Source of the DNA: Escherichia coli
GTDB taxonomy: Bacteria > Pseudomonadota > Gammaproteobacteria > Enterobacterales > Enterobacteriaceae
Strand: one strand, 5' to 3'
NCBI RefSeq assembly: GCF_024502345.1
Contig: NZ_JALDNN010000001.1
Length of the DNA stretch: 64,000 nucleotides
Part shown: positions 4,467 to 59,676 of the stretch, piece by piece
Position numbering within the stretch: the stretch's first letter is position 1
Layout of the letters: each line of letters opens with the position of its first letter
Translations under genes and position numbers: made by a program
The notes under the pieces: model-generated
Told to the model about the DNA's origin: nothing
The model's database searches: none
What the model saw: only the letters and a program-made list of their open reading frames with translations

Positions 4467-4804
4467 TTTATTCCCTGAAAATTCTTGAGAAATAACGGTT
4501 CTTTAAATTGCGCGCGAGGAGAGATATGAGGGATTTACAGACCAGCGGCATAGTGGGGTTGTCAGCCAGTAAGGTGGGATACAGGCATAGTGATCGACAT
4601 GGTGAGGTCAACGACAAAAAAAATGTTGCCGTTCTGCCAACAGTTCCTGCCAGCATTCGGGCAACGAAGGGTTCGACTGGTGGATACACATACCAGGGGA
4701 ATAAAGTCGTTTTAGCCTCTCCTTTAGTAATCACCGGGGGTAATGAAATCAGCATCTGCATCCCTCGTCATGCCAGCCATCAATTTCAGTTGCTTATGTC
4801 CTGA

Positions 4805-9983: not shown

Positions 9984-11207
9984 TTATGGTATTATATTCT
10001 GATAATGATTTGATAAGCGAATTCTTTTGCCAGATGGTATTTCTATTTCCACCCCATAATTTATATCTTTTTCATTAGGCAGATCTCTCTTTAAATAAAA
10101 GGGGTATGAAATCTTTTCGGGTTGAAGTGTCTCGTAATGAAATGCTATGAATTCATTTTTAGACATTGTTGCCCATTTTTGAATTTTATTGTATAGAGAG
10201 GGTGTTGTAAACTCTTGAAGTTGTTTATAACATATTTTTTTGAACTCTTGCTTATATTTTAATATGTCATCAAATGAAAGATTCACTACCTTTGCCTCTA
10301 AGAAATCAATTATTCTCGAAGCAATTTCCGCTTTCGCGCGTAAAGAGTTGTCATTAATAGTTAACAATGTAGAAAACAAGCCATTGATTTGTTTGTCAAG
10401 ATGCTGTTCATATTTATGTAGTTTGGGGATGGGATTTTCCTTGTGTGAAAAAATAGTGTTAAATAAATTTGCGTCAGTGAAATTTATATTAAGTAGATCT
10501 TCAAAATAAAAATTTGATAAGGTTAGGACTAGCCTGGACATATCTTGCCCTGTCATGTTGAAATCAATAAAGTCGCATCCAGCAAGGGCTTCCATCCTAT
10601 TTTCATTTTCACTGTGCTCAATATACAGCTTCGCCATTTTTAAGTACAAGCTTTGAATGTCTCTTATATCAGTTGGTAAGTCAGCTCGTTGCCCAGCAAA
10701 ATTTTTATTATCGGAAGAAACGGTTTGGACACTGAATCTTTCGGGTATTCCTTCTTCTACGAGAATTTTAGTTATGATTGGATTGTTGGGTTCTGGATTA
10801 ACGACAACAATGATTTGACATACAGAATCCTTATCCTTTTCGTATCTAATGTTATGAATCTGATTAAGTATTGATTGTGTCTGTTGCGTAAGTGGTGTCG
10901 AACTTATCGTTTCAATGTTATTAATAAGACTTACAAGTTGAACCACAACTTTTGAGTAGTCTGCATTTGTATATGTGGTGTTCGTGTGGCATGCATTAAT
11001 TTGTTGGAGTTGTTGTTGCGCTAAATCAAATTGTTCAGGGTTGTATCCTTCTCCAGAGAATGTGGAATTAATGGGTTGTTGTTCTTCCCAATTATCACAA
11101 GGCCACTTCGGTGTGTCTGGCGTTTTAACATTATCGGTATTTGTTGTGCAGTTATAAATATCGCCGTGATATGTATTTATTATACCTGGGGTAAAGTCAA
11201 TTGACAT
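9984..11207 (-). CDS. yhiS: Uncharacterised AT-rich protein YhiS, apparently intact (407 aa)
   Basis: Uninterrupted 407-codon ORF in a strongly AT-rich segment between slp and arsC; N-terminus [20 protein letters not shown]...; assignment by position and recollection of YhiS. Confidence 0.75.
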
Positions 11208-11685
11208 AACATTCCTTATTCATCATCTGTTTTATGCTAAGGTTTTTAAATTGGATAATTAGAACAGGAATGGATTTTCTTCTACACACAATAAATATAA
11301 TGCGTTATATCTTCCTGATATAATTACCTTTAAATTCCCTTTCATTTCCACCCGGTAATATTTGTGTATAAAAAAAAGGGCAGTGATAGTATCGTAAAGG
11401 AAAACGTTAACAACTATCAAAAAGCGCTCATTTTAAAAAGTTATTATGTTCTCTGATAGTGTGTGAAATGATATTTTTGTGATGTTTTAGGTGTGTAATA
11501 ATAAAATGGGTTAAGGTATCTTATAATTATTTAATAATTTGTTGTGTAAATCACTGATAAATCATAATCCAGTACGTCTTTAAACTACTGCACTGTATCG
11601 CTGATAACTAAGCAGCTCACTGATACACCATGCTGGACGCGATAATTGGAATCTCACGCAGGGAGTACTGTGTAAATAGCAAAAT

Positions 11686-11787
11686 CGCCTGATGCGCTAC
11701 GCCTGTCAGACCTACAAATAACATACAATTCATCGAATTTTCATAACATTGTAGGTCGGATAAGACGCGCCAGCGTCGCATCCGACA
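11686..11787. repeat. REP/BIME-type extragenic palindromic elements (two REP units in opposite orientation)
   Basis: gcctgatgcgctacgcctgtcagacctaca and tgtaggtcggataagacgcgccagcgtcgcatccgac resemble the E. coli REP consensus. Confidence 0.7.
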
Positions 11788-11835: not shown

Positions 11836-12261
11836 TTATTTCAGGCGCTTACCCGCTTCATCAACCACTTTCTCGCCATCTTCCTTGGTGAATGCGCCTT
11901 TTTGCGCATCTGGCAGAATTTCCAGCACCACTTCTGAAGGGCGGCACAGGCGAGTTCCCAGCGTCGTCACCACAATCGGGCGATTAATCAGAATCGGGTG
12001 CTGAAGCATAAAGTCGATTAACCGATCGTCAGTAAATTTATCTTCCGCAAGGCCCAGCTCCTCATACGGTTCGACGTTTTTACGCAGCAGCGCGCGTACG
12101 GAAATCCCCATATCGGCAATGAGTTTGACCAGTTCATCGCGCGTTGGCGGAGTTTCCAGATAATGGATAATGGTCGGTTCTGTGCCGCTGTTGCGGATCA
12201 TCTCCAGCGTATTACGCGACGTGCCGCAGGCCGGGTTGTGATAAATGGTAATGTTGCTCAT
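11836..12261 (-). CDS. arsC: Arsenate reductase ArsC, 141 aa
   Basis: ORF translation MSNITIYHNPACGTSRNTLEMIRNSG... (Spx/ArsC family, catalytic Cys in NPACGTS). Confidence 0.96.
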   Translation of the reverse strand: MSNITIYHNPACGTSRNTLEMIRNSGTEPTIIHYLETPPTRDELVKLIADMGISVRALLRKNVEPYEELGLAEDKFTDDRLIDFMLQHPILINRPIVVTTLGTRLCRPSEVVLEILPDAQKGAFTKEDGEKVVDEAGKRLK

Positions 12262-14119: not shown

Positions 14120-14205
14120 CGTAAAAAAACCGACTTTGCGTCGGTTTTTTACTTTCCAGCCCAGAGTTGGTGGCTCTGGCTGGAGTGAGAATGCCCACAT
14201 CTAAC
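14120..14205 (-). ncRNA. agrB: agrB-like small antisense RNA (repeat copy nearest arsR)
   Basis: Block shared with the dinQ leader (ctggctggagtgagaatgcc...) on the opposite strand to dinQ; putative -35 ttgcaa / -10 tagtat on the minus strand; hairpin plus U-run at 14123..14150. Ends approximate; agrA/agrB naming from recollection of K-12 order. Confidence 0.55.
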
Positions 14206-14351: not shown

Positions 14352-14442
14352 GATGTAAAAAAACCGACTTCGCGTCGGTTTTTTTACTGTTCAGCCCTGA
14401 GTTGGTGGCTCTGGCTGGAGTGAGAATGCCATCATCTAACGC
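14352..14442 (-). ncRNA. agrA: agrA-like small antisense RNA (repeat copy nearest dinQ)
   Basis: Second copy of the same repeat with its own putative -35 ttgcaa / -10 tagcat and terminator hairpin at 14355..14385; ends approximate. Confidence 0.55.
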
Positions 14443-21640: not shown

Positions 21641-21956
21641 ATTTATTAACCTTCCAATACCATCCTGAAAAGTATGAACGCGTAAGGGATAACGCGCGAA
21701 AAAGTTTACATCTGTCAGAGATTCTTAATATTGATGCGGTGAATAGATTAATACACTATTACAACAGAAAATAACCAGCTGATCACACTAATGATGGAAA
21801 ATATGATGGTGTTAAATATTGTATTGGCTGGGGATTTTGATTGCGAACGCAGACCGTAGGCCAGATAAGGCGTTTACGCTAATCAGGTAACAAGGCGCGC
21901 CAAAAAGCAAAACGCCCGCATATGCGGGCGTTCAGGAACACGTCGTGGAGGGAAGA

Positions 21957-57990: not shown

Positions 57991-59094
57991 ATGAACATAA
58001 AGGGTAAAGCGTTACTGGCAGGATGTATCGCGCTGGCATTCAGCAATATGGCTCTGGCAGAAGATATTAAAGTCGCGGTCGTGGGCGCAATGTCCGGTCC
58101 GGTTGCGCAGTACGGTGACCAGGAGTTTACCGGCGCAGAGCAGGCGGTTGCGGATATCAACGCTAAAGGCGGCATTAAAGGCAACAAACTGCAAATAGTA
58201 AAATATGACGATGCCTGTGACCCGAAACAGGCGGTTGCGGTGGCGAACAAAGTCGTTAACGACGGCATTAAATATGTGATTGGTCACCTCTGTTCTTCAT
58301 CAACGCAGCCTGCGTCTGACATCTACGAAGACGAAGGCATTTTAATGATCACCCCAGCGGCAACCGCGCCGGAGCTGACCGCCCGTGGCTATCAGCTGAT
58401 CCTGCGCACCACCGGCCTGGACTCCGACCAGGGGCCGACGGCGGCGAAATATATTCTTGAGAAAGTGAAACCGCAGCGTATTGCTATCGTTCACGACAAA
58501 CAGCAATACGGCGAAGGTCTGGCGCGAGCGGTGCAGGACGGCCTGAAGAAAGGCAATGCTAACGTGGTGTTCTTTGATGGTATCACCGCCGGGGAAAAAG
58601 ATTTCTCAACGCTGGTGGCGCGTCTGAAAAAAGAGAATATCGACTTCGTTTACTACGGCGGTTATCACCCGGAAATGGGGCAAATCCTGCGTCAGGCACG
58701 CGCGGCAGGGTTGAAAACTCAGTTTATGGGGCCGGAAGGCGTGGCTAACGTCTCGCTGTCTAACATTGCGGGCGAATCAGCGGAAGGGCTGCTGGTGACC
58801 AAGCCGAAGAACTACGATCAGGTTCCGGCGAACAAACCCATTGTTGACGCCATCAAAGCGAAAAAACAGGATCCAAGTGGCGCGTTCGTCTGGACCACCT
58901 ACGCCGCGCTGCAATCTTTGCAGGCGGGCCTGAATCAGTCTGACGATCCGGCTGAGATCGCCAAATACCTGAAAGCGAACTCGGTTGATACCGTGATGGG
59001 TCCGCTGACGTGGGATGAGAAAGGTGATCTGAAAGGCTTTGAGTTCGGTGTGTTTGACTGGCACGCCAACGGCACGGCGACCGATGCGAAGTAA
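57991..59094 (+). CDS. livJ: Leu/Ile/Val-binding periplasmic protein LivJ, 367 aa
   Basis: ORF 57934..59094 trimmed to ATG at 57991 ([37 protein letters not shown]...). Confidence 0.93.
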
Positions 59095-59152
59095 TCATTA
59101 ATCGGCAACTTTGGGTTGCCGCCAAATTGCTAATATCGAGTACGTTGCTTCA

Positions 59153-59253
<101 letters not shown>

Positions 59254-59292
59254 ATTTCTCGTTGGTCATCACTTTTGAAATCAACTTGACGA

Positions 59293-59676
59293 TTAACGCT
59301 TCTCCCAGCCGCCCTGTTGCGCCGTAAACCCCAGCGCCTGCATAAACGCCGTCATCACACCGCGATCTTCCAAGCCTGCATCCGCCATCCACCAGCATGA
59401 AACGGCAGGATTGTTACGCAAAACCTCTTCCAGCAGATATTGCCCCACACCGCGACGGCGGGTGACTTCCCGCACGCGCAGGGAATCCAGTGCTCCCTCG
59501 GTGCCGCTTAAGGTTACCCGCACGGCCGCTAGCAGGCGCTCGTTAAAACGCGCGGCGTAGATGCGGTGGTTATCGTCAACCTGTAAAGAGGAAGGGGAAT
59601 ACTCCGGCCAGATCTTTTGCAGGTCAATCCGGTCCTGGTCGCTAAAGTTTTCTAATCGAATGATGGTCAGCTTCAT
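59293..59676 (-). CDS. panM: GNAT-fold PanD maturation/regulatory factor PanM (PanZ, YhhK), 127 aa
   Basis: ORF translation MKLTIIRLENFSDQDRIDLQKIWPEYSPSSLQVDDNHRIYAARFNERLLAAVRV... Confidence 0.9.
   Translation of the reverse strand: MKLTIIRLENFSDQDRIDLQKIWPEYSPSSLQVDDNHRIYAARFNERLLAAVRVTLSGTEGALDSLRVREVTRRRGVGQYLLEEVLRNNPAVSCWWMADAGLEDRGVMTAFMQALGFTAQQGGWEKR

Follow-up and report, generated by a model that had tools for sequence, protein, structure and literature searches.

What occupies the spacers at the 3′ ends of arsC, livJ and panM in Escherichia coli, and does it act on the DNA, on the transcripts that run through it, or not at all? We took up this question in a 64-kb segment of the E. 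coli chromosome (64,000 nucleotides; hereafter, the window), in which an earlier note, made from the letters alone, had read two intergenic stretches as REP/BIME clusters that mark operon boundaries. REPs and BIMEs have reportedly been described since 1984, by Stern in that year and by Gilson and Bachellier. Taking identity and 3′-end role together, we consider it very probable that both stretches are ordinary E. coli REP pairs, that is, single-copy 'atypical' BIMEs which most E. coli have inherited at the orthologous place and whose hairpins define mRNA 3′ ends.

REP pairs at the arsC and livJ-panM junctions

The window runs in reverse relative to K-12. It carries, in order, the chu haem-uptake cluster, dctR-slp-yhiS, arsCBR, gor, prlC, dtpB, uspA, pitA, nik, zntA and ftsYEX-rpoH-livJ, with panM-livKHMG at its far end, and its own open reading frames bear out the names yhiS, arsC, livJ and panM that had been given to the genes on either side of the two stretches. 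The window and K-12 have a three-gene arsRBC operon; arsD and arsA are present in some strains, giving arsRDABC (strain LP5-1, L005 4520-8346). We rejected the yhiS-arsC spacer as the boundary of a chu island, because the chu edge (about 8426) lies 3.3 kb away and has no REP; the description of this spacer as 'near the island boundary' is thus a loose one.

Short-query BLAST of three REP consensus sequences (Y, Z1 and Z2) against the 64-kb window returned five REP units, four of them in two pairs (Table 1). The consensus sequences were cross-checked with the three that Durrant et al. published in 2024 (PMC11208160). All four paired units matched a consensus with 38-52 bits, far above the best score of 19-25.3 bits per window obtained with 30 first-order shuffles. 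The pairs occupy exactly the positions that the earlier note had assigned to paired REP units in opposite orientation, 11686-11787 between yhiS and arsC (site 1) and 59153-59253 between livJ and panM (site 2). Each site holds one inverted pair, however, so that the word 'cluster' does not apply, nor would 'array'.

Table 1. REP units, linkers, IS621 targets and flanking genes. Positions are those of the window except in the last row; consensus matches are BLAST hits to the Y, Z1 or Z2 consensus, and published matches are to the sequences in PMC11208160.
Feature	Positions	Strand	Consensus match	Published match	Remarks
yhiS	9984-11207	-			window ORFs
REP1, decayed Z2-type, GCCTGATGCGCTACGCCTGTCAGACCTAC	11687-11715	+	Z2, 26/29, 37.9 bits (11687-11715)	Z2, 26/30	site 1
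Site-1 linker	11716-11750	.			35 nt, single copy per genome
REP2, Z1-like, small subfamily, GTCGGATGCGACGCTGGCGCGTCTTATCCGACCTAC	11751-11786	-	Z1, 30/32, 45.7 bits (11751-11782)	Z1, 32/37	site 1
IS621-type 11-nt target ATCCGACCTAC, CT core, in REP2	11751-11761	-			occupied in other strains
arsC	11836-12261	-			window ORFs
Solitary decayed Y-like REP	21856-21889	-	Y, partial, 22/24, 33.1 bits (21856-21879)	Y, 29/34
livJ	ends at 59094	+			window ORFs
Y-type REP	59153-59187	+	Y, 33/34, 52.0 bits (59154-59187)	Y, 35/35	site 2; hairpin -21.3 kcal/mol, z -4.8
Site-2 linker	59188-59223	.			36 nt, locus-specific
Z2-type REP	59224-59252	-	Z2, 29/29, 47.3 bits (59224-59252)	Z2, 29/30	site 2; hairpin -13.2 kcal/mol, z -4.0
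Wild-type IS621 target ATCAGGCCTAC, perfect, in site-2 Z2 REP	59224-59234				sequence match
Equivalent of K-12 livJ mRNA 3′ end	~59257	+			predicted by orthology
panM	59293-59676	-			window ORFs
Variant-guide IS621 copies in other strains	L005 2724-4001; L013 1345-2622; L014; L015				target = window 11751-11761

Other routes to these elements returned less. A search with a fixed-spacing REP pattern gave no match, because loop lengths differ among the three REP types, and the K-12 RefSeq record carries no annotated REP features. Rfam has no family that matches REPs; its only gathering-score matches lie elsewhere in the window, namely two AgrB-family antisense RNAs (agrA and agrB, adjoining dinQ, at 14121-14204 and 14355-14439 on the minus strand) and the ES205 sRNA, on the shuT side of the chu cluster (4616-4687, minus strand).

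The GTAG/CTAC foot is present in all four paired units (CTAC at 11712-11715 and 59184-59187; GTAG at 11751-11754 and 59224-59227). The partners in each pair are on opposite strands and face each other as CTAC...GTAG across linkers of 35 nt (site 1) and 36 nt (site 2), which is the generic BIME arrangement of opposite-strand units plus a linker. Three of the four fold into strong hairpins (-13.2 to -21.3 kcal/mol; z -4.0 to -5.3), each with one 1x1 internal loop, and the sequences are multicopy, a site-2 query giving at least 40 matching pieces in 2742 records. A common foot, an imperfect palindrome of 30-40 nt that forms a hairpin with one internal mismatch, an extragenic 3′ location and a high copy number are all traits of the E. 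coli REP family (Y, Z1 and Z2); site 1 differs from the family in that REP1 has decayed and REP2 is a hybrid subtype.

All REP units are intergenic, and the pairs lie 40-59 nt past the stop codons of arsC (REP2 starts 49 nt downstream, on the arsC strand), livJ (the Y unit begins 59 nt past it) and panM (the Z2 unit follows after 40 nt, on the panM strand). The pairs thus sit at the 3′ ends of arsRBC, livJ and panM, which are transcription-unit ends, and the proposed association with operon boundaries holds.

At site 1, the 3′ arm of REP1 bears three substitutions, and the unit forms only a weak hairpin (-6.6 kcal/mol; z -1.8). The K-12 copy has one mismatch fewer than the window's, and a haplotype of the F467 type has an 8-nt deletion in this unit. 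The REP2 hairpin is strong (-20.8 kcal/mol; z -5.3) and has one internal mismatch. REP2 combines a Z1 loop with a Y-like stem, in which one pair is changed on both sides, from GCCGG...CCGGC to GTCGG...CCGAC (C-G to T-A, compensated), and the median genome has near-identical copies of it at 7 places. The linker between the two units is a single-copy sequence, present in 3179 of 5426 genomes, while that of the F467 allele is dispersed (median 14 places per genome) and is one that we take to be the L motif of BIME-1. The two linkers are equal in length and identical at 21 of 35 positions, a level equaled by 6 of 20,000 shuffles; on this ground, the site-1 linker appears to be related to the repeated BIME-1 L motif but decayed.

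The site-2 linker is single copy as well and was found in 3792 of 5426 genomes. The site-2 BIME of K-12 is identical to that of the window; the two sequences differ solely by an indel of 12 nt immediately outside the Z2 unit. When six strains were aligned, about 5 of the 101 columns of the site-2 BIME varied, and most of the variation lay outside the BIME. The 12-nt segment itself (TTCTCGTTGGTC, 59256-59267, directly past the Z2 REP) is shared by the window with two of the compared strains; K-12 and two others lack it. Both elements are known biology, orthologous to elements of K-12.

The fifth unit, which the earlier note had missed, stands alone at 21.86 kb, beyond the uspA terminator (hairpin at about 21909-21935), and it no longer forms the REP hairpin. 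In the closest genome, PapRG-04-4, two 17-aa 'hypothetical proteins' are annotated across this solitary REP (21803-21887); these open reading frames are probably annotation artefacts.

Alternative alleles of the two junctions

Comparison across strains showed that both junctions are polymorphic, mostly not through the REPs. The site-1 arrangement of the window is common to 3175 genomes. Roughly 27% of genomes have a permease gene and a gene for an ArsR/SmtB-family regulator between yhiS and the site-1 BIME, and in this allele the stop codon of the regulator (GCC TGA) falls inside REP1. What is left of the regulator gene in the window and K-12 is its final ~65 nt (about 11627-11692 in the window); the window form is therefore a deletion derivative, with a breakpoint that lies about 65 nt from the REP and outside it.

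The livJ-panM spacer likewise exists in two forms. About 70% of genomes have the 199-nt BIME spacer (59095-59292). The other ~30%, O157:H7 among them, have a toxin-antitoxin cassette, ataRT, of about 950 nt together with a classical livJ terminator (L007 3058-4003), which replace the whole spacer and leave no REP. The breakpoints of the ataRT allele fall at the stop codons of livJ and panM, and ataT overlaps the panM stop codon. A REP-mediated origin of the ataRT/BIME and permease/regulator alleles was considered and rejected, since the breakpoints lie at stop codons or in the regulator remnant and not in REPs. The suggestion that the pairs are plausible rearrangement hotspots was right in part: the junctions are polymorphic and IS621 has inserted into the REPs (see below), but the allele breakpoints lie outside them.

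These alleles also bear on whether the pairs do anything for the host. They could be relics, selfish or neutral, left behind when the REP-associated tyrosine transposase spread REPs and BIMEs, with no host function and kept by descent. TnpA-REP does cleave and recombine BIMEs in vitro (Ton-Hoang et al.), decay is evident in REP1 and in the solitary REP at 21.86 kb, the site-1 linker is 40% diverged from the L motif, and the ~30% of genomes that lack the site-2 BIME have ataRT and a classical terminator in its place. On the other hand, the site-2 BIME is nearly invariant among the six aligned strains, linker included, three of the four paired units keep their full hairpin strength, and there is a strong RNA 3′ end at the site-2 BIME of K-12. 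A history of this kind without a host function is possible but doubtful, and we hold to the reading in which the REP hairpins define mRNA 3′ ends.

Possible protein sites on DNA and a probable role of the hairpins at mRNA 3′ ends

BIMEs have been divided into BIME-1 (RIP/RIB), in which Y and Z1 units surround an L linker, BIME-2, in which Y and Z2 units form tandem arrays with short linkers, and an 'atypical' remainder (Ton-Hoang et al.). Neither site in the window has the Y + Z1 composition of BIME-1, as site 1 combines a Z2-like with a Z1-like unit and site 2 a Y with a Z2 unit. Neither is a BIME-2 tandem array with short S linkers: site 2 consists of a single pair around a unique linker of 36 nt, and a Y unit is missing from site 1. 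Judged by sequence, neither is a canonical BIME-1 or BIME-2, and both belong with the 'atypical' BIMEs of the Ton-Hoang et al. scheme. They resemble BIME-1 in being single inverted pairs with long linkers (43-44 nt, counted from CTAC to GTAG), of which that at site 1 appears L-derived, and in that the alternative site-1 allele carries a dispersed linker of the L type; they differ from it in REP composition, in that both window linkers are single copy, and in that any IHF sites within these would be putative. BIME-2 shares its Y + Z2 composition with site 2, which differs from it in being single copy, with a long unique linker and no tandem array.

The elements might act mainly on DNA as protein sites, with IHF bound to the linker, as in BIME-1, or gyrase to the REPs, as in BIME-2. 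According to the literature, L linkers often contain an IHF site, and published gyrase work has found cleavage to be enriched in BIME-2, mainly at Y units. The site-2 linker contains an IHF-consensus-like site with one mismatch (AATCAGTAAATTG, 59200-59212), and at site 1 there are the apparently decayed L motif of the window and the L-type linker of the alternative allele, so that IHF may bind to the linkers. Such one-mismatch matches are nevertheless common and at chance level: the window has 83 (about 1 per 770 bp), where chance alone would give 58.7, and the site-2 match is thus weak evidence; the site-1 linker has matches with two mismatches only. Furthermore, both linkers are single copy and not a conserved L motif. 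With respect to gyrase, neither site has the tandem Y/Z2 array with short linkers that the enzyme prefers, and the gyrase Topo-seq supplements consulted make no mention of these loci. The label 'gyrase-binding', which had been attached to these elements, would fit poorly with single long-linker pairs as opposed to BIME-2 arrays, and since both are single, long-linker, atypical BIMEs, the generic label should not be copied onto the two pairs. We consider a role mainly as protein sites on DNA unlikely, and turn to the REP hairpins as 3′-end structures in mRNA.

REPs were reportedly described as stabilisers by Newbury in 1987. A terminator scan of both sites found no hairpin followed by a T-run, and hence no intrinsic terminator, which leaves the REPs as the only strong 3′ structures after arsC, livJ and panM. 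That these hairpins are classical Rho-independent terminators and not REPs, as G+C-rich hairpins at the 3′ ends of genes might suggest, is refuted by the sequence and is scarcely credible, given that no T-run follows any REP hairpin, that the units match REP families in full, and that the genuine livJ terminator in the ataRT allele is a hairpin followed by TTTTTTT.

Published Term-seq tables for K-12 (Adams et al., 2021) record a 3′ end with 39,091 reads at position 3598392 (minus strand), on the livJ strand. Mapped onto the K-12 sequence, this end lies 5 nt beyond the paired stem of the distal Z2 REP. The livJ 3′ UTR thus includes both REPs, with the end of the transcript at the base of the outer hairpin. 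No 3′ end was found near arsC in the published K-12 Term-seq, as expected, because the ars operon was uninduced in those conditions. Rho-dependent transcripts are known to end just past stable stem-loops without U-tracts, which shield them from PNPase and RNase II, and 24% of these protective stem-loops are REPs (Dar and Sorek, 2018; PMC6061677). A 3′ end just past a hairpin without a U-tract was found in the present case for the K-12 orthologue of site 2 only.

In the mechanism that we propose, the REP pairs would be transcribed as part of 3′ UTRs, that of arsRBC at site 1 and those of livJ and panM, on opposite strands, at site 2, and their hairpins would define and stabilise the mature mRNA 3′ end as a barrier to exonucleases. 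The REP hairpins, rather than a U-tract terminator, most likely set the end of the livJ mRNA, and they probably set those of the arsRBC and panM mRNAs also. The site-2 3′ end fits an exonuclease barrier, but the K-12 end may come from termination and not from trimming. Site 2 is like the known REP stabilisers and protective 3′ stem-loops (PMC6061677) in having a stable hairpin without a U-tract and a 3′ end a few nucleotides downstream; the Rho dependence and exonuclease trimming of the known protective stem-loops are putative for livJ and arsC. Because REP1 has decayed and barely folds, site 1 would act, if at all, through REP2 alone. Exonuclease protection would be expected in this strain, and an effect on arsC may be expected as well. 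The description of these elements as mRNA-stabilising is thus supported at site 2, by orthology with K-12 and by the Term-seq 3′ end without a U-tract, and would apply to site 1 by extension.

IS621 insertions and a matched guide variant

The targeting of REPs by IS621 is said to go back to Choi in 2003. The natural REP target of this IS110-family element, ATCAGGCCTAC, is recognised by its bridge RNA (Durrant et al., 2024; PMC11208160). REP feet (ATC.G.CCTAC) are the natural targets of bridge-RNA-guided IS621, which makes occasional points of insertion of both sites in the window. Each site has an 11-nt sequence that matches a guide and contains the CT core, and copies of IS621 are present at both in other strains. 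The two targets differ, however: the Z2 REP of site 2 has the natural ATCAGGCCTAC, whereas REP2 at site 1 has ATCCGACCTAC, which is occupied only by a rare variant of the element.

At site 1, a 1277-bp IS621 lies exactly at the CT core of REP2 (TTATCCGACCT / IS / CTAC) in strains LP5-1, PT62, ET201 and MB53. These represent two haplotypes, the regulator type (LP5-1, PT62 and ET201) and a K-12-like type (MB53). The full junction was found in 4 of 5426 genomes, and at least 4 more have a copy with a 72-nt deletion. To search site 2, we built an in-silico junction from the panM flank, up to ...ATCAGGCCT, and the left end of wild-type IS621; 7 genomes matched it with 100% identity, and 8 of 5426 with a coverage of ≥80%. 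In strain E110019, an IS621 transposase is annotated between panM and livJ. Insertions of IS621 are therefore rare, each site being occupied in about eight of the 5426 genomes.

The deleted copies, in LHM10-1 and three other strains (L012 2420-2650), are IS621 elements at arsC that lack 72 nt of their left end. The lost segment lies between an internal copy of the guide, CCAAGGTCGGATA, and the flanking REP sequence, ACAAGGTCGGATA. Such a loss, bounded by the guide and the sequence that it targets, would take away the beginning of the bridge RNA.

The 1277-bp copies at the arsC REP have a bridge-RNA left target guide that reads ATCCGACCT, versus ATCGGGCCT in the wild type. The same guide, ATCCGACCT, is found in an IS621 at the aga locus of strain C9, and all copies with this guide at arsC and aga sit in REPs that read ATCCGACCT then CTAC. 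The IS621 of E. coli W, with the wild-type guide ATCGGGCCT, sits in ATCAGGCCT then CTAC, as published. The variant loop is rare: only 10 of 5426 genomes have it at ≥99% identity and 18 at 95-99%, while a wild-type-like loop is found in about 2100. Two haplotypes show this guide-target pattern at the arsC REP, and a third strain shows it at aga. On balance, we lean toward the view that the REP2 subfamily, with its foot ATCCGACCTAC, is a dedicated landing site of a rare IS621 lineage with two matching guide substitutions. If this is true, it would be a natural retargeting of a bridge recombinase within one species, from the abundant Z-type REPs to a class with few copies per genome.

A separate IS110-family copy was seen in strain CUVET18-565 (L016 160-2717), between rrf (5S rRNA) and kgtP, where it is frameshifted and lies beside a frameshifted IS1397; both elements target REPs. 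The guide of this copy, ATCCGGCCT, is a third loop variant, and its target reads ATCCGACCT.

The value of these results lies mainly in correct annotation, with REP hairpins rather than a U-tract terminator most likely setting the livJ end. For the comparison of strains, both sites are real, if rare, insertion points of IS621, and both junctions have common alternative alleles. Covariation of guide and target has already been reported in the literature for IS110 elements, so the IS621 guide variant, a natural case in which both have changed in step inside a single species, is a new example and not a new kind. With that said, the matched guide variant is a small natural illustration of the programmability of bridge RNAs.
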